Shown piece after piece: positions 10,074 through 47,918 of a DNA stretch of 64,000 bases (positions within the stretch are counted from its first letter, which is position 1; the number at the start of each line of letters is the position of its first letter). Position numbers and translations under genes: made by a program. Source of the stretch: Candidatus Multivorans sp. (lineage in GTDB: Bacteria > Acidobacteriota > Thermoanaerobaculia > Multivoradales > Multivoraceae); the NCBI GenBank assembly GCA_965224025.1, contig OZ245033.1, forward strand, positions 352,001-416,000. Reading direction: 5' to 3'. The notes below the pieces were generated by a model. The model ran no database searches, had not been told where the DNA came from, and saw nothing but the letters and a program-made list of their open reading frames with translations.

Positions 10074-10757
10074 ATGAACCGCTGGATCAAGATCGCCGCT
10101 TGCGGTGTCGTCGTCGCCGGTGTCCTGGGATGGGGCGGTTTCAAGACCTACCGCTTCCTGCTGGAGAGCGGGCTCATCCGGTTCAACGAGTACGACATTC
10201 GGACCGAGGGCATCCTTCAGGTCGGCGAGCCTGCTCCGGACCTGCCGTTGACTCTGGTCGGCGGCGGCGACGCGCGTCTCTCGGACCTGTGGGCCACCAA
10301 GCCTCTGGTCCTGGTCTTCGGCAGCTACACGTGACCGCCCTTCCGAGCCCGTGTGGCTCGGCTCGAGGAGATGAGGGAAGAGTGGAGTCCGGCCATCGAA
10401 TTCAGCTACGTCTACATCAAGGAGGCCCACCCGGAGGACGAGTGGCAGGCGCCCAGGAACGAAGCGACGAACCTGATCTTCAATCAGCCAAAGACGATGG
10501 TTGACCGCATGGATCTCGCCAGAGAGTTCGTCGAAGCGATGGATGTCAAGACACGGACCCTGGTGGACGACATCGCCAACACGGCCAACGCCTGCTATGC
10601 CGGCTGGCCCGAGCGCATCTACGTGATCGACAAGGGCGGCACGATCGCCTACAAGGGCGGCATGGGGCCCTTCAACTTCGATACGGACGAGCTCGAGGAG
10701 TTCCTCGCGGACAACTACGTCGGGCTGCGCACCGCGAGCGAAGCCACAGCCGGCTAG
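10074..10757 (+). CDS. Selenoprotein, iodothyronine-deiodinase-like thioredoxin fold (Sec at TGA 10332-10334)
   Basis: ORFs 10074-10334 and 10353-10757 are in one frame. Read-through gives PLVLVFGSYT-U-PPF, YIKEAHPED and YAGWPERIYVI; N-terminal TM segment. Confidence 0.9.
10343..10361 (+). promoter_or_regulatory. Candidate bacterial SECIS hairpin
   Basis: CCGAGCC-CGTGT-GGCTCGG, a perfect 7-bp stem with G-containing loop, starting 8 nt after the in-frame TGA. Confidence 0.7.
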
Positions 10758-10873
10758 CCATAGAGGCGTTTCGCGCGCTAGGAGTGTCCGCAGCGTTGTC
10801 GCTGCGCTGTCGCGCAGGGAACAGGCAGCGAGTAGCCAACGTTACAGCGGCGTCGTGGGTTCGTAGAGTTGGC

Positions 10874-11029
10874 CGCGCTGGGCAGCGAGGCCGCGCAGGC
10901 ACTGGTGTGTTGGCGCCCGACTAGGAGTTTGGCCCGGACCGTGATCGGCGCTCTGACGCTGGCGGCGCGGCTTGTGTCGCGACCCCGTATGCAAGATTGA
11001 GCTTTTCGCCGCGGTCTCTGCCCAGCGCG
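10874..11029 (+). ncRNA. Bridge RNA, structured core (transcript ends unknown)
   Basis: 12-bp perfect closing stem 10874-10885/11018-11029. Encloses GCCGCGCAGGC, CTAGGAG, CGGAC and ATGCAAG, which match the flanks and element ends. Confidence 0.8.
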
Positions 11030-11062
11030 ACGATTGGATTCCACATCTACGGGAGGCAGGGG

Positions 11063-12382
11063 ATGGCAAAGCGGAAGGCGGAGCGTCTGGAAGTCGTTCA
11101 CCCGGATTGCGCCGGTGTGGACGTAGGCAAGCGCAAGCACTACGTGGCGGTGGCCCCGTCGCGTTTCGAGCGGCCGGTGCGCAATTTCTCGTCGTTCACG
11201 GAGGACCTCGAGGCGATGGCCTCGTGGCTTCAGGAGTGCGGCGTGCGTGAGGTGGCGCTGGAGTCGACGGGGGTGTACTGGATTCCGGTGTTCGAGGTGC
11301 TGGACCGGGCGGGGTTCGAGGTGCATCTGGTGAATCCTCGGGCGACCAAGCAGGTGAGTGGCCGCAAGAGTGACGTTCTGGACTGCCAGTGGATCCGGCA
11401 GTTGATGAGCTACGGGCTCCTGCGCGGTGCGTTTCGCGCGCCGGACGAGTTGTGTCCGCTGCGTTCGTACACGCGGCAGCGCGCCCAGTTGGTCCGCGAC
11501 CGCAGCCGCGCGGTGCAGCACATCCAGAAGGCTCTGGTGCAGATGAACGTGCAGTTGGACAACGTGCTGAGCGACATCATGGGCAAGACCGGCCAGTTGA
11601 TCGTGCGCGCGATCGTCGCCGGCGAGCGCGACGGCGCGGCGCTGGCCCGTCACCGGGACGGTCGCTGCAAGGCTGGTCCGGCTGTGATCGCGGCGAGTTT
11701 GCAAGGCAACTGGCGAGACGAGCACCTGTTCGCTCTGGGCCAGGCGCTGGCCCGCTACGACATGCTGCAAGGCCAGATCGAGATGTGCGAGAAGCGCATC
11801 GACGCCGAGCTCGACGGCCTGGCCCAAGACGGCGTCGAGGACGCGCCGCCGCCCGGTTCGAAGGCGCGCGAGCGCGCCCTGCGGAAGCGGCTGCATCGCA
11901 TGCTCGGCGTGGACCTGGTCGCCATTCCGACGGTCGGCGTCGAAACCGCGCTGACCTTCGCCGCTGAGATCGGCCCGGACCTGTCCCGGTTTCCCTCGCA
12001 GGGCAACTTCTGCTCGTGGCTGTGTCTGGCTCCACCGACCAACATCAGCGGCGACAAACGGCTGAACGGCCCTCCCGTGAAGCAGACCAACCGGGTCGGC
12101 CAGACGCTGCGCCAAGCCGCCACCACAGCCCGCAACAGCAAGACCGCCATCGGAGCCTCTCACCGCCGGCGTCTCCAGCACATGGAGAAGGCGAAGGCCA
12201 TCAAGGCCACCGCTCATCAACTCGGCCGACTGATCTACGCCATGCTGACCCACGGCGAAGAGTACGTCGAGCGCGACCTCGCCGAAATGGAGGCCGTCCG
12301 ACGCGAACGACAAATCAGAAACCTGCAGCGTCAGGCCCGCCGCCTGAATCTGGCTCTCGTGCCGACCGAACATGCCGCCTGA
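11063..12382 (+). CDS. IS110 family transposase / recombinase
   Basis: AGVDVG, ALESTGVYW, KSDVLD (DEDD RuvC-like); NISG serine motif; RBS upstream of ATG 11063. Confidence 0.95.
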   Translation: MAKRKAERLEVVHPDCAGVDVGKRKHYVAVAPSRFERPVRNFSSFTEDLEAMASWLQECGVREVALESTGVYWIPVFEVLDRAGFEVHLVNPRATKQVSGRKSDVLDCQWIRQLMSYGLLRGAFRAPDELCPLRSYTRQRAQLVRDRSRAVQHIQKALVQMNVQLDNVLSDIMGKTGQLIVRAIVAGERDGAALARHRDGRCKAGPAVIAASLQGNWRDEHLFALGQALARYDMLQGQIEMCEKRIDAELDGLAQDGVEDAPPPGSKARERALRKRLHRMLGVDLVAIPTVGVETALTFAAEIGPDLSRFPSQGNFCSWLCLAPPTNISGDKRLNGPPVKQTNRVGQTLRQAATTARNSKTAIGASHRRRLQHMEKAKAIKATAHQLGRLIYAMLTHGEEYVERDLAEMEAVRRERQIRNLQRQARRLNLALVPTEHAA

Positions 12383-12460
12383 ATCGCGCAACCTGCGCTG
12401 CCAACAAGGAACCCCTACCCGTTTGTTCCATGCAAGCCTGCGCGGCAAAACGATCTGACT

Positions 12461-12493
12461 TGGGAACGCGGGCGTCTCGCCCGCATCCGGCGC
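12461..12493 (+). repeat. REP-like hairpin
   Basis: TGGGAACGCGGGCGTCTCGCCCGC; near copy of 1100-1133. Confidence 0.75.
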
Positions 12494-12524
12494 CAAGCGC
12501 CGGCCTCCCGGGAGTTCTGTCGCC

Positions 12525-13331
12525 CTAGCCGGATTGGCCGGCCGGGTTGTTGACCCGATAGGTCAGGCGCGCCGCCGCGCGCCGCGTCAGGATGCGCATC
12601 AGGAAGATGACGGCGCGGTTGCGCCAGCCCGGTACGACCGAGGGGGCGCGACCGAGCCCTCGCAGGCTGGCGTCCACCACCTGCTCGGGGCTCGTCCAAC
12701 CGGTCATCGGCTCGGGCGCCCCCATGCCGGCCTTCTTCTGGTACTCGGTCGGCGTGAATCCCGGCGACAGCACGATGACGTCGATTCCGTGCTCCGAGAG
12801 CTCCGCCCAGAGCGCTTCGCCGAACATCAGGTTGAACGCCTTCGACGCGCCGTAGACGGCCTCGAACGCCACCGGCTGGTAGGCCGCCGTGCTCGACAGG
12901 AAGATCAGCGCGCCGCGACCGCGCTCGACGAGCCGCGGAGCGAGAATCGTCGCCAGCCCGACGGCCGCCCGGTTGTTGACCTCGACGATCTGAAGTTGAA
13001 GCTCGGGATCCTGCTCGACAAAGGGCCCGTAGGTGCCGAAGCCGGCGTTCGACACCAGCATGCCGACCTCGATCCCGAGATCGTCGACGGCCTTGAAGAC
13101 GAGCCGCGGGCCGTCGCGCTCCCCAAGGTCCTGGGGAACGACATGGACCGTCACACCCGAGGCCGAGCGCAATTCCCGCGCCAACTTCTCGAGCCGGTCG
13201 GTGCGCCGTGCGACAAGCACCAGTTCCATGCCCTCATCGGCAAGCCGCCGCGCGTAGGCCTCCCCGATACCGCTGGAGGCGCCCGTAATCAGGGCGGCGC
13301 CGCCGTAGCGTTGCGGGATTCGCGGGCTCAT
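12525..13331 (-). CDS. SDR oxidoreductase
   Basis: TGASSGIG, SNAGFG, YGASK. Confidence 0.92.
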   Translation of the reverse strand: MSPRIPQRYGGAALITGASSGIGEAYARRLADEGMELVLVARRTDRLEKLARELRSASGVTVHVVPQDLGERDGPRLVFKAVDDLGIEVGMLVSNAGFGTYGPFVEQDPELQLQIVEVNNRAAVGLATILAPRLVERGRGALIFLSSTAAYQPVAFEAVYGASKAFNLMFGEALWAELSEHGIDVIVLSPGFTPTEYQKKAGMGAPEPMTGWTSPEQVVDASLRGLGRAPSVVPGWRNRAVIFLMRILTRRAAARLTYRVNNPAGQSG

Positions 13332-13409
13332 CGCGTCCGGACGTTCCTCGCAGCGCCGCGCGCGACGCCTGCGGGTCGTGGTCCTACTCGTAGCGTAGCT
13401 GCTAGCGGG

Positions 13410-15146
13410 CTACGCAACCGCGCCGGGCGTCGCGACCCGGGGATCGTTTACGCCCATGCGATCCACCAACTCCTGAAAGCGTGGTTCGCCGTGCAGGCAG
13501 TCGAAGGCTGGATGCACCTTGGTCCAGAGAACAGGCCCGAACTTCGCCCTCACAGCATTTTCCAACCAGACCAGAGCCGTTTCCTTTTCGTCGAGCCAGG
13601 CGTAGAGGATCGCCAGGGAGGCAGAGCGGCTATCCCCATTGTTCACCCGCTTCAAGAGCTGATCCACCATCCAGCGAAACGCTCCCGGTTCGCCTCCCTT
13701 CGCGTAGGCGCTCCCGAGCGCCTCCGCTTCCTCCTCGCGGTCAGTGTTCCGCAGTTGCACCTGACGTTCATGGATCGCCTCGTCCGTGCGGCCCATGGCG
13801 CTGTAGCAAGCCGCCAGCAGCGAGCGCACTATCGGATAGTCCTCTTCCAGCGCGAGCATGTGACGAGCCTGCACCGCCGCCTCTTCGTAACGTCGCGTGT
13901 AGTAGAGGATCTGAGACAACCCCTGGCCAAACGTCGGCGACAGGGGATCCAGCTCCAGCGCAGTCCTGATTTCCCGTTCCGCTTCCTCGACACGGCCAAC
14001 CGGCGACAGAAAGTGGTTTCCGTAGGAGTAGTGGGCAGTCGAATTGCCAGAATCGAGCTGCAGAGCCCGCAGGAAGGCCCGTTGCGCCGTTGACCACTCC
14101 CACCGGAACGTGCTCACAAGACCCAAGGCCCGGTACGCGAGCACACTCGAGTCGTTGAGTTCCAGCGCCCGGTGGACCGCTTCCTCCGCCTTGGCCACCA
14201 TCTCGTTCACGGGCACGAAGCCATAGGCCAGGAGATTCGCGTAGCACGCCCCGAGCAGTGCGTGGCCGCGCGCGAAGTCCGGTTGCAACTCGAGCGCCCG
14301 ATTCAAGAGGCTGATCGCCTGTCGTAGGCGGCCCTCCGTCTGGTAGGGAATGCAGTACCGCGCCTCCAGGTAGAGGCGATAGACCTCCTGGTTGTCCGTA
14401 TGACGCGCCACCACCGGACCCGGGTGCGGATCCAACAGCTTCGTGCACACGTGATCCACGATCGCGCGGGCGATCTCCTCCTGGATCTCGAAGACGTCTC
14501 CCAGTTCCCGATCGTAGTGCTCGGACCAGAGCTGCGTGCTATCCGACGTCCGTATCAGTTGCGCCGAGATCCGCAGCCGGTCGCCCGCCTTCCGCAAGCT
14601 ACCCTCAAGAATCGCCGATACACCCAGCTCTTGGCCAACCGCGGAAGCGCTGAGATCCCTCAGTCGGAGGTCAAAGGAAGATGTTCGGCCCACAACCCTC
14701 AGGCCCTCGACCGCGGCCAACGTGTCAATCAGCTCTTCCGCCACCCCGTCGCAGAAGAAGGCCCGGTCCGGGTCGGCGCTCATGTTGGCGAAGGGCCGGA
14801 CAGCGATCGACCCTTCAAGAGAGACCTCGACCGGAGCGGTGAACCGGTAGCCGCGACCCGGAACCGTAACGACGTACTGGGTCTCCTTGCTCTGCCCCAA
14901 GGTCTTCCGCAGCACGGAGAGGTTGTGCATGAGGTTGCTCTCGTCCACCGTCGTATCCGGCCACACCATCGCCATCAACTCCTCCTTGTGGAGGAGGCGG
15001 TTGTTGTTCTCGACTAGCGCCCGCAGAGTGTCGAAGATCTTCGGGCGCACCCCTATCAGGCGCCCGTCCCGGAGCAGCCGGCGCTGACCCACATCGAGCA
15101 GGTACGGGCCGAAGGCGTAAGAGCGGCGGTGAGGAAGCGAGGACAT
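13410..15146 (-). CDS. CadC-type winged-HTH / TolB-like / TPR transcriptional regulator
   Basis: YAFGPY...VVTVPGRGYRF wHTH; SIAVRPFANMS...FCDG module; TPR repeats. Confidence 0.88.
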   Translation of the reverse strand: MSSLPHRRSYAFGPYLLDVGQRRLLRDGRLIGVRPKIFDTLRALVENNNRLLHKEELMAMVWPDTTVDESNLMHNLSVLRKTLGQSKETQYVVTVPGRGYRFTAPVEVSLEGSIAVRPFANMSADPDRAFFCDGVAEELIDTLAAVEGLRVVGRTSSFDLRLRDLSASAVGQELGVSAILEGSLRKAGDRLRISAQLIRTSDSTQLWSEHYDRELGDVFEIQEEIARAIVDHVCTKLLDPHPGPVVARHTDNQEVYRLYLEARYCIPYQTEGRLRQAISLLNRALELQPDFARGHALLGACYANLLAYGFVPVNEMVAKAEEAVHRALELNDSSVLAYRALGLVSTFRWEWSTAQRAFLRALQLDSGNSTAHYSYGNHFLSPVGRVEEAEREIRTALELDPLSPTFGQGLSQILYYTRRYEEAAVQARHMLALEEDYPIVRSLLAACYSAMGRTDEAIHERQVQLRNTDREEEAEALGSAYAKGGEPGAFRWMVDQLLKRVNNGDSRSASLAILYAWLDEKETALVWLENAVRAKFGPVLWTKVHPAFDCLHGEPRFQELVDRMGVNDPRVATPGAVA

Positions 15147-15334
15147 GCAACCGGTGATCCAGAGGCCGAATCCTAACGCTTCAAAGGAAATCTGGCGCTT
15201 CAGCGGCGCTGGGGAACCGAGAAGACGTACAGGTATCGCCCGCACCGGCCTTCCAAGTGACATCATCGACCATCGGACCTCGCCACCGAGATCTTCACGG
15301 GCTTCGTCGCAGCCAACACATCGGAGCATCCGCC

Positions 15335-16645
15335 ATGAGCCAGCACGACGCCGCCGGGCCTGGACGATCGAGCCGCCGAGACTTCCTCAGCCGCAGCACT
15401 GGTCTGGTCGCGGTCGCGGCATCCTCGGGGTTGGCCGGCCCGTCCACTCCGGCAGCGGGGGTCGCGCGTGCTCGCACAACACGGCAGGAAGACGCCGACC
15501 CAAGCCGGATCCAGATCAGCTCCGTCGACGCCTACCACATCCGCATCAACCAGCGCTCGGAAGGCCTGCTCGACCCGCCCGTCTTCTTCGGCGACGACGA
15601 CCCGCGGCGCTGGCGCTACGGCGGACCCTTCGAACAGCTCCCCTCGGCGATCATCGCGATCGTCAAGACGAACACCGGCGTCACGGGCTTCGGGATGGGG
15701 GCCGGGGGCAGCGCGGCGGTCGAGATCATCGACGGCCATCTGCGTCACCTTCTGGTCGGCGCCAATCCGCTCAACGTCGAGCAACTCTGGGACCAGATGT
15801 ACAGCTCGGCCCTGCTCTACGGCCGGCGCGGCCTCTTCGCAATGGCGCTCTCCGCCGTCGACAACGCCCTCTGGGACATCGCCGGCAAGCACGCGGGCAA
15901 GTCGGTTCATGCGTTGCTCGGCGGTCAACCCGACGATCGCGTCGCCGTCTACCAGACCGGCGGCGACATCGACGCGGGCAAGAGCCAGGGCATCCGCCAC
16001 TTCAAGCGCATCCTGCCGATCGGGCCGTACAGCACGAAGGCCGACACGGACCGCGGCATCGACGACGTGCTGGCCGCCCGCGAGGCGATGGGGCCGGAAG
16101 GCAATCTGATGACCGACTGCGTCTCGCGCAACGGCACGGTCGACTGGGCGGTCGGCATCGCGGAACGTCTGCGACCGGCGAACCTCTACTTCATGGAGGA
16201 GCTGCTCTCCCCGGACAACGTGTTCGGCTACGCCGAACTGGTCGAGAAGATCGGCGGCGGCGGTCCCGGCTGGACGAAGGTCGCCTGCGGCGAACACGAG
16301 TACACGGAGCACGGCTTCGAGGTCCTGGTGCGCGTCGGATCCGCCGAGGTGCTGCAACCGGACATCACCTGGTGCGGCGGCCTCACGGCGGCGAAACGCA
16401 TCGCCGACCTCGTGGAGGCCGCCGCCCTCGAGCTCATTCCCCATCGCGGCGGCAGCCTGTGGGGGTTGCCGATCTCGCTGACGGCCCCGAGCTGCACGAT
16501 GGCCGAGAGCTTCGCCACCGGCTCCGCCATCCTCGACGCGATGCAGGCGCCGTTCGCCGACGGCGATTTCCTGGCGCCCGAGGAACCGGGCTTCAGTACC
16601 GCGCTCACCGAGGAGATGGTCCTCGACCACCGGTTCCGGCGGTGA
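15335..16645 (+). CDS. Mandelate racemase / acid-sugar dehydratase family enzyme with Tat signal
   Basis: SRRDFL Tat motif; SAVDNALWDIAGK, FMEE, CGEHE, LQPDITWCGG. Confidence 0.88.
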   Translation: MSQHDAAGPGRSSRRDFLSRSTGLVAVAASSGLAGPSTPAAGVARARTTRQEDADPSRIQISSVDAYHIRINQRSEGLLDPPVFFGDDDPRRWRYGGPFEQLPSAIIAIVKTNTGVTGFGMGAGGSAAVEIIDGHLRHLLVGANPLNVEQLWDQMYSSALLYGRRGLFAMALSAVDNALWDIAGKHAGKSVHALLGGQPDDRVAVYQTGGDIDAGKSQGIRHFKRILPIGPYSTKADTDRGIDDVLAAREAMGPEGNLMTDCVSRNGTVDWAVGIAERLRPANLYFMEELLSPDNVFGYAELVEKIGGGGPGWTKVACGEHEYTEHGFEVLVRVGSAEVLQPDITWCGGLTAAKRIADLVEAAALELIPHRGGSLWGLPISLTAPSCTMAESFATGSAILDAMQAPFADGDFLAPEEPGFSTALTEEMVLDHRFRR

Positions 16646-16677
16646 AGCAGCGGTGAAGTAGCATTCGCGCCTTCCGA

Positions 16678-18807
16678 ATGAAGTGCTCAAGCCGCCTGAC
16701 CTGCGCCCGGCTCGGGGTGCTGCTCCTCGGTGCCGGCGTCGGCGCCCAGGAAACCGGTTTCGAGCCGGTCACCCAGGAGATGCTGCGCAACCCGGAACCG
16801 GGCCAGTGGCTCCACTGGCGGGGGACGCAGAACGCATGGGGCTACAGCCCGCTCGACCAGATCACCACCGAGAACGTCGGGCAGCTTCAATTGGTCTGGG
16901 CGTGGGCGATGGACGACACCGGCCCGCAGGAGGCGGCGCCCCTCATCCACGGCGGCGTCATGTACGTGCCGAATCCGGGCAACGTCGTCCAGGCCCTGCA
17001 CGCGGCGAACGGCGACCTGATCTGGGAGTACCGCCCGGAACAGGTCGGCGACGGTAGCGGCGCCTTCGGCCGCGGGGTGCAGAAGAACATCGCGATCTAC
17101 GGCGACCGGATCTTCGGCGCCAGTTCGCGAGCAACGATCTTCGCCCTCGACGCCCGCAACGGGAAGCTGATCTGGGAGACCCGGACCGCCGACACGAGCC
17201 TCGGCTACCGCTACTCCGCCGGCCCGATCGTCGCCAACGGCAAGCTGGTCACCGGCATCACCGGCTGCGGCCGCTACAAGGACGACGTCTGCTTCATCAC
17301 CGGCCACGATCCGGCGACCGGCGAGGAACTCTGGCGCACCTCCACGATCGCTCGTCCCGGAGAGCCGGGCGGCGACACCTGGGGCGACCTGCCCTTGCGC
17401 TTCCGCGCCGGCAGCGACGCCTGGATCGCCGGCAGCTACGACCCGGACCTGAACATCGTCTACTGGGCCACGTCCCAAGCCAAGCCCTGGGCCCGGTCCG
17501 TGCGCGGCACGGACGGCGACGCGCTGTACACGAACTCGAGCCTCGCGCTCGACCCCGACACCGGGAAACTGCTCTGGTACTACCAGTACCTCCCCGGCGA
17601 GACCCACGACATGGACGAGGTATTCGAGTCGCTCCTCATCGATGTCGACGGCCGCAAGCAGCTCTTCAAGATGGGCAAGCTCGGCATCCTCTGGCAGCTC
17701 GACCGGGAAACCGGCGAGTTCCTGAACGCCACCGACATCGGCTACCAGAACCTCGTCGACGTGGACCGGGAAACGGGCGAGGTGACCTACCGCCCGGAGC
17801 TGATCCCGGAGATCGGCGTCGAGATCAACATGTGCCCGAGCACGTCCGGCTTCAAGGGCTGGCGGGCGATGTCCTACAACCCGAACACCCGGGCGCTCTA
17901 CATCCCGGTCACCCTGAACTGCGAGCTGGCGACGTTCGGCCCGGTCGAGCGCGTCCTCGGCGGCGGCGGTGCGGGGCCGGTCAAGCGGATCAACACCCTG
18001 CACCCGTACTCGGACGGCAACCTCGGCGAGCTGCTCGTGATCGACGTCAAGGAGGGGGACATCATGTGGCGGCACCGCACGGAGTCGCCGATCAACACCG
18101 CCGCCCTGTCTACCGGGGGAGGCGTGGTCTTCGCCGGCGACTACGACCGCTACGTGTACGCCTACGAAGCGCGGACCGGCGCGATCCTCTGGCAGACGCG
18201 GCTACCCACGTCCGCCCAGGGATTCCCGGTGACCTACCTCGCCGGCGGTCGCCAGTACGTGGCGATTCCGGTTGGAACCGGCGGCGCCAGTTGGGCGACG
18301 ATGGTGCCGAGGGATCTCATCCCCCACATTCGCCGTCCGACCAACGGCAACTCGATCCACGTATTCGCGCTGCCGGCGGACATGCCGGTTGAGACCGCCC
18401 GGACCCGCACCACGACGGCGGACCGCGACACCACGGAGGCGACCGCCGCCTCCCGGACCGTCTGGGACGGCGTCTACACCGCCGAGCAGGCCGAGCGCGG
18501 CCTCGGGCCGTACCTTGCGAACTGCGCGACCTGCCACGGCGAGGACCTCGGCGGAGGCAGCAACTCGCCGGGCCTGACCGGCGTCAGCTTCCAGTTCCTG
18601 TGGGGCGACAAGACCCTCCACGAGCTGTTCGAGGCAATCCGCACGACGATGCCGACCGACAACCCGGCCAGCTTGCCCCGGGACACCTACCTCGACATCC
18701 TGACCTACATGCTGCAGGTCAACGAGTTCCCAACGGGCGACGCCGAACTCGACGTCGATCCCGCGGCCCTCGGCAACGTCCTGATCACCGGCAAGCCCGA
18801 CGCGTAA
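16678..18807 (+). CDS. PQQ-dependent dehydrogenase with C-terminal cytochrome c
   Basis: YSPLDQIT, Trp-docking beta-propeller repeats, GRQYVAI; CATCH haem motif. Confidence 0.9.
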   Translation: MKCSSRLTCARLGVLLLGAGVGAQETGFEPVTQEMLRNPEPGQWLHWRGTQNAWGYSPLDQITTENVGQLQLVWAWAMDDTGPQEAAPLIHGGVMYVPNPGNVVQALHAANGDLIWEYRPEQVGDGSGAFGRGVQKNIAIYGDRIFGASSRATIFALDARNGKLIWETRTADTSLGYRYSAGPIVANGKLVTGITGCGRYKDDVCFITGHDPATGEELWRTSTIARPGEPGGDTWGDLPLRFRAGSDAWIAGSYDPDLNIVYWATSQAKPWARSVRGTDGDALYTNSSLALDPDTGKLLWYYQYLPGETHDMDEVFESLLIDVDGRKQLFKMGKLGILWQLDRETGEFLNATDIGYQNLVDVDRETGEVTYRPELIPEIGVEINMCPSTSGFKGWRAMSYNPNTRALYIPVTLNCELATFGPVERVLGGGGAGPVKRINTLHPYSDGNLGELLVIDVKEGDIMWRHRTESPINTAALSTGGGVVFAGDYDRYVYAYEARTGAILWQTRLPTSAQGFPVTYLAGGRQYVAIPVGTGGASWATMVPRDLIPHIRRPTNGNSIHVFALPADMPVETARTRTTTADRDTTEATAASRTVWDGVYTAEQAERGLGPYLANCATCHGEDLGGGSNSPGLTGVSFQFLWGDKTLHELFEAIRTTMPTDNPASLPRDTYLDILTYMLQVNEFPTGDAELDVDPAALGNVLITGKPDA

Positions 18808-47537: not shown

Positions 47538-47781
47538 GTTCTCTGGGTGCGCGGACCTTCTGGTCCGCATCGAGCGCGATGCTGCGAAGCAGCGAGCACG
47601 AGCTTGTTCCATGCAAGTAGGAACAGCGCCCCGCTGCGCTTGCACGCAGGGAACTGGGCCGCGGACTGGCGCGCAGGCGCAGAACTGTCGCCGGCCTTCG
47701 GCCAGCGGCAGTTTTCTCCGGACTTCGCCGCTTCGCGGCTTCGCCCGGAAGCGGACCAGAAGGTCCGCGCACCCAGAGAAC
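47538..47781. repeat. Inverted REP doublet (REPIN-like)
   Basis: Perfect 31-bp inverted repeat, 47538-47568 and 47751-47781. Confidence 0.85.
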
Positions 47782-47856
47782 CGCCGTCGACGCGTTGTGG
47801 TTCCCTGCTGCAGTTGACATCGCCGTGGGCGCCTTTGGCGGCCAGTTCCATGCAAG
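47618..47856 (+). mobile_element. Putative non-autonomous IS110-derived mini-element
   Basis: Starts with a homologue of the IS110 left end (CAGCG..CGCTGCGCT....CGCAGGGAAC) and ends in GTTCCATGCAAG, identical to the IS110 right end. Confidence 0.55.
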
Positions 47857-47918
47857 CATGCGCCTCCGACTCGCTCCCGCTACCTTCGGCGGCGCAAGCT
47901 CCTAGAATCCTCCCTGCA

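Follow-up and report, generated by a model that had tools for sequence, protein, structure and literature searches.

The stretch analysed here, hereafter the window, comprises 64,000 nucleotides of the Candidatus Multivorans sp. genome (assembly GCA_965224025.1, contig OZ245033.1, positions 352,001 to 416,000 of the forward strand) and harbors an intact and recently multiplied 1652-bp insertion sequence of the IS110 family at window positions 10785-12436, counting one copy of an AG core at its right end. Based on sequence comparison, we conclude with a probability of roughly 85% that this is an active-looking bridge-RNA element of the ISPpu9 kind, whose two-loop RNA has the reverse strand order compared with IS621. 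An earlier note, made from the letters of the window, had proposed an IS110 bridge RNA whose guides can be read against its own target and donor, and its claims held in part.

In the mechanism that we propose, an RNA of about 160 nt would be transcribed from the left non-coding end, on the strand of the recombinase gene, and bound by the recombinase; its outer stem would enclose two homologous internal loops. The 3' strand of the first loop, CTAGG-AG, is identical in sequence to the left target half with the core and would pair with the bottom strand, and the 5' strand of the same loop, GCGCAGG-C, would pair with the core G and the right target half in the top strand. The 3' strand of the second loop, ATGCA-AG, has the sequence of the right end of the element with the core. 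Guided by this RNA, the recombinase would recombine the circle junction, ...CCATGCA-AG-TGTCCGC..., with CTAGG-AG-nCTGCGC sites that border a repeat resembling the repetitive extragenic palindromic (REP) sequences, the strands being exchanged at AG. Relative to IS621 and ISEc21, the order in which each loop reads the DNA strands would be reversed. Equivalently, the cassette of RNA and gene would be inverted relative to the recombination sites, with the core being CT on the other strand.

Ends of the element and its target site

The genome contains 14 full-length copies of the element, each 1652 bp long with 0-3 differences (at least 99.8% identity). All of them start with TGTCCGC, end with CATGCAAG and are preceded by CTAGGAG. 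The base preceding CTAGGAG differs among the copies, the sequence further upstream varies too, and the right flanks are nCTGCGCGGCAG-like to differing degrees. The ends that had been proposed at 10785 and 12436 are the same in all 14 copies, and unoccupied sites confirm both these ends and the AG core. Since AG comprises the sole bases common to the left and right junctions, the exchange is placed there.

CTAGGAG is part of the target and not of the element. On both strands of the genome this word occurs 136 times, and 122 of these sites are unoccupied. Three unoccupied sites read exactly CTAGGAG-N-CTGCGCGGC, and 30 of the 122 match CCTGCGC (positions +1 to +7) at five or more of seven positions, compared with 673 of 20,000 random 7-mers of the genome. 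Such sites form the edge of a REP-like repeat. Target position +1 is C in six, A in five and T in three of the 14 copies.

In metagenomic short-read contigs from three runs, breaks are located at 10777-10779 and 12436-12447. None of the contigs extends across the whole element, and neither a circle nor a precise empty joint was seen among them. The one contig joint that was found, from 10757 to 12532 with 27 other letters between, represents a diverged relative and has a short side of 24 letters. A search of 12 genomes of the same genus matched the element body in none of them, among the matches listed (there were 122 further matches). The left flank of one copy (L003 in our numbering of loci) continues without REP or element in three orthologous flanks (L085, L088 and L089), and the anchor of this flank was not found in L086 and L087.

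The sub-terminal inverted repeats of the element covary in its homologues: GGAACA/TGTTCC in the window is replaced by CAAACA/TGTTTG, CTAACAT/ATGTTAG or GAAACAC/GTGTTTC. These repeats are up to 7 bp long, and 9 bp in L083, as read by eye.

A predicted, covarying two-loop RNA upstream of the recombinase gene

In a scan of one genome per species, 59 loci encoding relatives (44-86% identical) were found, and their upstream regions align with that of the window. We aligned 30 of 35 homologous regions, leaving out L022, L051, L054, L055 and L060 as near-duplicates or insertion-bearing. RNAalifold predicted an outer stem and two hairpin-bearing internal loops for this alignment; a five-pair extension of the stem closing the second loop was added before the pairs were counted. 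The 42 pairs of the six helices were formed in 90.8% of the alignment cells, compared with 34.0-43.6% when the partners were slid by 1-3 columns, and 27 of these pairs change on both sides, i.e., are compensatory. The covariation score of the fold was 0.357 (control, 0.054-0.085), and none of 500 shuffles reached any of the fold measures. Indeed, the structured RNA that the earlier note had placed in the 5' non-coding end is supported by covariation in 30 homologues, and the 12-bp stem that it described at 10874-10885/11018-11029 is perfect.

The inner helices P2, P3 and P5 (Table 1) contain 91 G.U and seven A.C pairs, which favors the plus strand. Both loops follow one plan, in which a 5' strand, a single base, UGG and a hairpin are followed by CC(C)G, another single base, a word of 5 nt and AG. 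Because the two loops share this build, both 3' guides follow CCCG by one base, a regularity that the earlier note had already seen and that is present in the sequence. Rfam returned only gntR-DTE, on the minus strand, with 20 bits and an E-value of 0.84, far below the threshold. The z-score of single-sequence folding was -0.38, which is uninformative in this GC-rich sequence.

Putative guides covarying with the target and the right end

Four short matches between the non-coding end and the junctions had been reported for the window, and all four were found in the sequence. GCCGCGCAGGC at 10890-10900 (guide 1) is the reverse complement of 12436-12446, CTAGGAG at 10921-10927 (guide 2) is identical to 10778-10784, CGGAC at 10935-10939 (the supposed guide 3) is the reverse complement of 10786-10790, and ATGCAAG at 10989-10995 (guide 4) is identical to 12430-12436. 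In 20,000 first-order Markov simulations of the 258-nt non-coding end, the 11-mer appeared in 38, CTAGGAG in 321, ATGCAAG in 111, CTAGGAG together with ATGCAAG in none and CGGAC in 7310 of the simulated sequences. Chance thus fails to explain the matches of guides 1, 2 and 4, whereas CGGAC is at chance level.

Our first covariation scan was too permissive and the next one used guide-placed junctions, and therefore the analysis was repeated with independent junctions. When the left junction was set by the alignment column only, guide 2 agreed with the left flank at 3.96 of five positions in 24 distinct rows, compared with 2.03 ± 0.25 after shuffling (0 of 10,000 shuffles). Three of the 24 rows were off by one alignment column, and three more did not fit. 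The words to which guide 2 and the left flank change together are CCAGG, ATGCA, ATGAA, ATGCG, ATGGA, ATTGT, GAGGG, ATGAG, ATTCT and AAATG; both also differ between L066/L067 and L069, which are located in a single genome. The homologues thus have no fewer than ten different words in guide 2, and natural retargeting occurs repeatedly. For guide 4, the right end was set by the GTTnn motif only (15 of 24 rows had one candidate), and the agreement was 4.73 of five positions versus 3.55 ± 0.18 after shuffling (0 of 10,000 shuffles). The AG core was present in the orientation of the gene in all 24 distinct rows with a placed junction.

The part of guide 1 that lies in the loop (10893-10899) agreed with its own right flanks at 3.21 of seven positions and with the flanks of other types at 2.24 (19 types, permutation fraction 0.0001); in the 14 copies of the window's element the mean was 5.36 of seven. 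The proposed 11-nt guide matches the right flank more weakly than guides 2 and 4 match their sites, though above the shuffled level. Its first three bases (10890-10892) belong to P2, in line with the caveat of the earlier note that a part of this match can also pair within the stem.

CGGAC had been considered to be the left donor guide, and this assignment was rejected. Three of its five bases lie in a helix with four of five pairs compensatory, and CGGAC is constant while the left terminus varies; its frequency in the simulations is given above. To summarize the covariation of guides with their sites, which had been suggested as a check, it was strong for guides 2 and 4, weak for guide 1 and absent for CGGAC. 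The 5' strand of the target loop gave no convincing guide for the left terminus either (2.48, compared with 2.82 after shuffling).

The 5' strand of the donor loop and the sub-terminal left end share a word in the same sense, located just before the inverted repeat, which is TGACGC, TTCAC, GTCG or TGTC depending on the clade. Its mean length was 4.85 nt, reached by 13 of 2000 shuffles, and the reverse complement gave nothing. This same-sense left-end box does not fit the IS621 rule.

The same rule with other letters was observed on a Paraburkholderia plasmid (guide 2 TGTAG-AG, guide 4 TTGAG-AG, guide 1 matching at six of seven positions) and in an element whose four copies in genome G113 were aligned (GTGGG-AG and ATGAG-AG). 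The latter genome belongs to the genus of L065, a locus labelled Pseudomonas sp. whose protein is 57-58% identical to that of the window. In this genus, 13 of 201 genomes had a relative at E ≤ 1e-60 (45-58% identical), and a strict regular expression for the loops had no match in the loci from it. A tblastn search of plasmids at E ≤ 1e-5 found 502 records, and no IS1111-type name appeared among the matches listed (the best 40 of 502). Citrobacter accounts for 61 records matching the window's protein. L081 and L082, on IncF plasmids of Citrobacter and Klebsiella, encode a 46%-identical relative with the same RNA layout, in which AA apparently replaces AG at the junctions as well as in the two 3' guides.

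The recombinase gene and a possible promoter

The product of the recombinase gene, which the earlier note had described as an intact IS110 recombinase of 439 amino acids, has both domains and the catalytic residues in place. It matched the Pfam families DEDD_Tnp_IS110 (PF01548, 1.1e-25) and Transposase_20 (PF02371, 2.9e-11) and the NCBIfam model NF033542 ('IS110 family RNA-guided transposase') with 270.7 bits at a cut-off of 140. In an alignment of eight proteins including that of ISEc21, D20, D104 and S329-G330 were invariant; E67 and D107 are present in the window's protein, as judged by reading the alignment by eye. The identity with the ISEc21 protein was 23%.

At the place of the possible internal promoter (Table 1), homologues have a TATAAA-like box, and the joined circle ends contain no good -10 box, by eye. 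One base before TAGAGT, at position 10863, the window copy differs by a G from the remaining 13 copies and from contigs of three runs, all of which have A.

Non-autonomous relatives

The genome also contains a ~60-bp miniature inverted-repeat transposable element (MITE). Its core gave 24 hits, and the right-end word (GTTCCATGCAAG-like end) is present in 19 of these. Examples outside the window are found at G000:C1 527080-527140, 539361-539426 and 690780-690843. In the MITE, the left terminus is TCGAGTC and the right end ATGCAAG; it also has a hairpin, the box CTGACGC and the sub-terminal repeats GGAAAC and GTTCC. It shares the right end, the inverted repeats and the TGACGC box with the element, but not the left terminus (TCGAGTC versus TGTCCGC). 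It is located mostly behind (C/T)(T/C)AGGAG.

Within the window, a 239-bp non-autonomous element at 47618-47856 combines a box resembling the left end (TAGGAACAGCG...GCAGGGAAC) with the right end GTTCCATGCAAG, and a further GTTCCATGCAAG word precedes the insertion. On the minus strand, at about 47890-47906, there is an unoccupied CTAGGAG|CTTGCGCCGC site.

Weighing of the interpretation

Several observations weigh against a bridge RNA of reversed strand order. The homologues are related, so that the shuffle and slid controls overstate independence. The helices P1 and P4 show no strand preference (G.U 25 versus A.C 24). Guide 1 is weak on average, with several distant types at 1-2 of seven positions; target position +1 is C in only six of the 14 copies, and only four of 19 MITE right flanks, counted by eye, are REP-like (CCTGCGC at five or more of seven positions). 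The left terminus agreed with the 5' donor strand at 3.10, compared with 2.79 after shuffling (100 of 5000 shuffles). Because no RNA strand clearly covaries with the left terminus, the donor loop fits the IS621 model by half only. A sigma-70 promoter scan of the region gave no promoter at the threshold, with the candidate at 10841-10869 below it. Of the empty alleles that had been suggested as a check, exact unoccupied CTAGGAG sites were found in the genome and an orthologous empty allele was not; the empty sites are paralogous repeat copies. Finally, for ISPpu9 and ISPpu10, the part of the literature covered reports abundant antisense reads just upstream of the recombinase gene and few sense reads.

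These antisense reads raise the question of whether the functional guide is an antisense transcript, as in the case of Asr9 of ISPpu9, with the plus-strand fold being a 5' untranslated region (UTR) that controls translation of the recombinase. P1 and P4, which would pair equally on either strand, agree with this explanation as well. The inner helices closing both loops speak for the plus strand with their excess of G.U over A.C pairs (91 versus 7), and two U.G pairs that would be C.A on the other strand are kept in 30 of 30 sequences. Moreover, in our own working neither reading of the sites gives the IS621 geometry for an antisense guide, which we regard as improbable. A different concern is that CTAGGAG might be the true left terminus, with the left end at 10778, its match in the RNA being a donor guide and the AG not being duplicated. 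Its invariance in all 14 copies next to a degenerate right flank and the start of contigs of three runs at 10777-10779 would be expected then, and covariation of guide 2 with these seven nucleotides is equally expected. This explanation is nevertheless very improbable in view of the unoccupied sites, where CTAGGAG stands directly before nCTGCGCGGC (the three exact and 30 of 122 near matches described above), and of the MITEs, which share the right end and sit behind the same (C/T)(T/C)AGGAG. In addition, at the tandem junction of right end and left end in L057, ATAAGAG directly abuts the left end CCCACAC, and the guide-2 word of this locus is absent between them.

We give even less credence to the idea that the element is an ordinary member of the IS621 type and that the mirror order results from misassigned guides. 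Short GC-rich matches are easy to find in GC-rich sequence, as the frequency of CGGAC in the simulations illustrates, and guide 1 is weak. However, both strongly covarying segments lie on the 3' strands of the loops, in the same sense as the DNA of the left flank and the right end, whereas the same-sense segments of IS621 and ISEc21 are on the 5' strands in the text available to us. The core is AG throughout the 24 distinct rows, and the covered part of the publications on ISPpu9 gives AG as well. We therefore favor the plus-strand bridge RNA of reversed order.

Annotated features and further observations

The features of the element are listed in Table 1.

Table 1 Features of the element and its target site, with positions in the window
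Feature	Positions	Strand	Basis or remark
Left target half CTAGG and AG core (10783-10784)	10778-10784	+	14/14 copies; unoccupied REP-like sites
Left terminal box	10785-10823	+	Layout kept in homologues
Palindrome GCAGCG-TTGT-CGCTGC	10790-10805	+	In left terminal box
Palindrome CTGCGC-TGTC-GCGCAG	10802-10817	+	In left terminal box; overlaps the palindrome at 10790-10805
Box TGTCGC	10808-10813	+	In left terminal box
Left sub-terminal inverted repeat GGAACA	10818-10823	+	Covaries with right repeat
Possible internal promoter GTTACA-17 nt-TAGAGT	10841-10869	+	8/12 consensus positions, by eye
Predicted bridge RNA, ~160 nt, bounded by P1 (10872-10882 with 11021-11031)	10872-11031	+	RNAalifold and pair counts, 30 homologues
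Putative target-binding loop	10889-10934	+	Alignment fold, covariation
P2, GGCC	10889-10892 with 10931-10934	+	Closes target-binding loop
Target loop, 5' strand: GCGCAGG, invariant CA, C	10893-10902	+	Matches right flank
Hairpin P3	10903-10919	+	Target-binding loop
Target loop, 3' strand: A, CTAGG-AG, TTT	10920-10930	+	Covaries with left flank
Putative donor-binding loop	10937-11016	+	Pair counts, covariation
P4	10937-10941 with 11012-11016, 10946-10950 with 11007-11011	+	Closes donor-binding loop
Donor loop, 5' strand: CTCTGACGC	10951-10959	+	No clear match to left terminus
Hairpin P5	10960-10987	+	Donor-binding loop
Donor loop, 3' strand: T, ATGCA-AG, ATTGAGC...	10988-11006	+	Covaries with right end
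Recombinase gene, 439 amino acids and stop	11063-12382	+	Pfam, NCBIfam, alignment
Right end: TGTTCC repeat 12424-12429, guide-matched ATGCA 12430-12434, AG core 12435-12436	12424-12436	+	
Right target half CCTGCGCGGC, start of REP-like repeat	12437-12446	+	

The genome, in which the IS110 recombinase family has 34 matches, is unusually rich in IS110-family elements. In addition to the 14 copies, it contains an 85% relative at C1:2129243-2130584, a group of ten matches at 173-178 bits and further groups. Head-to-tail junctions, in which the right end ...ATGCAAG stands directly on a left end, were found at G000:C1:5042514-5044224 and also in L022, L044 and L057; they comprise an element followed by a MITE or by another element. 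Because of such a junction, the right flank of one of the 14 copies does not fit guide 1.

To the right of the element, a repeat of about 46 bp (12461-12506) occurs in dozens of copies in the genome. The summed contig depth in the bin 12421-12509 was 10807-17439 in three of four runs and 270 in the run X5. A repeat family represented at G000:C1:722245, 1161221, 3864576 and 4163171 ends with GTTCC(A/C)TGCAAG, followed by a palindrome and CTCCTAG, so that the right-end word and the inverted target word flank one hairpin. The REP-like repeats appear to be related to the ends of the element itself. In the bridge RNA gene of L074, an insert of about 88 bp lies exactly between CTAGG and AG of guide 2; it has left-end-like and right-end-like features (GGAAG/CTTCC repeats, ...CATGCA). 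The position of this insert suggests that the guide's own DNA served as a target.

Implications

Bridge RNAs are under development as programmable recombination tools, and the mapped examples in the text covered have either the IS621 layout or the downstream IS1111 layout. The element from the window suggests that a bridge RNA located upstream of its gene can function in the polarity opposite to it. On this reading, the published AG of ISPpu9 would correspond to the usual CT core, read on the complementary strand. Most of the natural specificity appears to reside in the short guides of the 3' strands (5 nt and the core), and the missing left-terminus guide together with the ~60-bp MITE would define a minimal natural donor. 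Conjugative plasmids of Klebsiella and Citrobacter carry the same layout, which is therefore relevant to the spread of such elements.

A more far-reaching proposal, which we put forward tentatively and regard as rather doubtful, is that the ISPpu9-like elements form a third architectural class characterized by an upstream RNA, the polarity and inverted repeats of IS1111, and asymmetric donor recognition. If true, this class would represent a surviving intermediate of the move that has been proposed for the RNA, from one end of the element to the other. The RNA would read only the right terminus (5 nt and AG) by the usual rule, and the left end would be marked by the same-sense sub-terminal box beside the inverted repeat. 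The left terminal bases would then be free, and a MITE with another left terminus could therefore ride on the same machinery.

Comparison with known systems

In common with IS621 and ISEc21 (PMC11208160, PMC11187229; published text covered in part), the element has a DEDD and Ser recombinase, a predicted RNA upstream on the same strand and two internal loops that match DNA around a 2-nt core, the target loop on both DNA strands and the donor loop clearly only at the right end. The guide of the 5' strand is longer and tolerates mismatches, and that of the 3' strand is short and strict. The target of IS621 is likewise a REP sequence. In contrast to these two systems, the loop strands follow the reverse order with respect to the gene, with AG here and CT there as the core. 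The same-sense words of the window's element lie on the 3' loop strands, whereas in the ISEc21 sequence the left-flank same-sense word precedes the right-flank complement, the matches being short (5-6 nt). The observation in the earlier note that the IS621 order and the CT core appear here only on the minus strand holds when compared with the covered text of Durrant 2024 (PMC11208160) and with the sequence of ISEc21. Further differences are the 5' target strand, which ends in an invariant CA here and in CU in IS621, the left-terminus guide, which was not found here, the sub-terminal inverted repeats of 5-9 bp, and the protein of 439 amino acids with its low identity to that of ISEc21. None of the literature searched describes a bridge RNA that lies upstream and has this order; Extended Data Fig. 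10c and the supplementary tables of Durrant may already show which polarity other RNAs of the IS110 group have.

The IS1111 elements ISEc11, ISKpn4 and ISPa11 have seekRNAs in which the complement of the top strand stands 5' of the match to the bottom strand (Siddiquee 2024, PMC11187229; we took the IS1111 order from the covered text of this paper alone). This order and the sub-terminal inverted repeats are found in the window's element as well. The difference is that the RNA is downstream and the recombinases have 330-350 amino acids in the IS1111 elements described there, whereas here the RNA is upstream and the protein is longer.

ISPpu10 (bioRxiv 10.64898/2026.03.19.712850) also has a REP target, and according to the part of the preprint covered, its target guide interface is strict on the right and tolerant on the left; this split resembles the invariant CTAGG and the degenerate right flank of our element. 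However, ISPpu10 has a CT core, the pairing logic of IS621 and a strong junction promoter. In addition, the core-adjacent position on its tolerant side is mismatch-intolerant, whereas the corresponding position varies among the 14 copies here.

The closest resemblance is to ISPpu9 of Pseudomonas putida KT2440, a member of the IS110 group that inserts in REP sequences (Pares-Guillen et al. 2025, PMC12288879; Gomez-Garcia et al. 2021, PMC8450116; the following is based on the text covered, in which the guides and their order are not mapped). AG stands at both ends of ISPpu9 in the orientation of its gene, and recombination takes place at AG. Its left box measures 43 bp and includes a palindrome similar to one of the right target half; the right box is 16 bp long, and both boxes recur in a MITE. 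No junction promoter is present; the native promoter is located ~84 nt from the left end and followed by a 244-nt structured leader or 5' UTR. Our comparison relies on this published description. The element of the window correspondingly has AG at both ends in the orientation of its gene, a REP-like target, a left box of ~39 nt with palindromes, a -10-like box ~80 nt from the left end, and end boxes shared with a ~60-bp MITE, including the right end GTTCCATGCAAG. It differs from ISPpu9 in that this MITE is far too short to contain a small RNA gene like ssr9.

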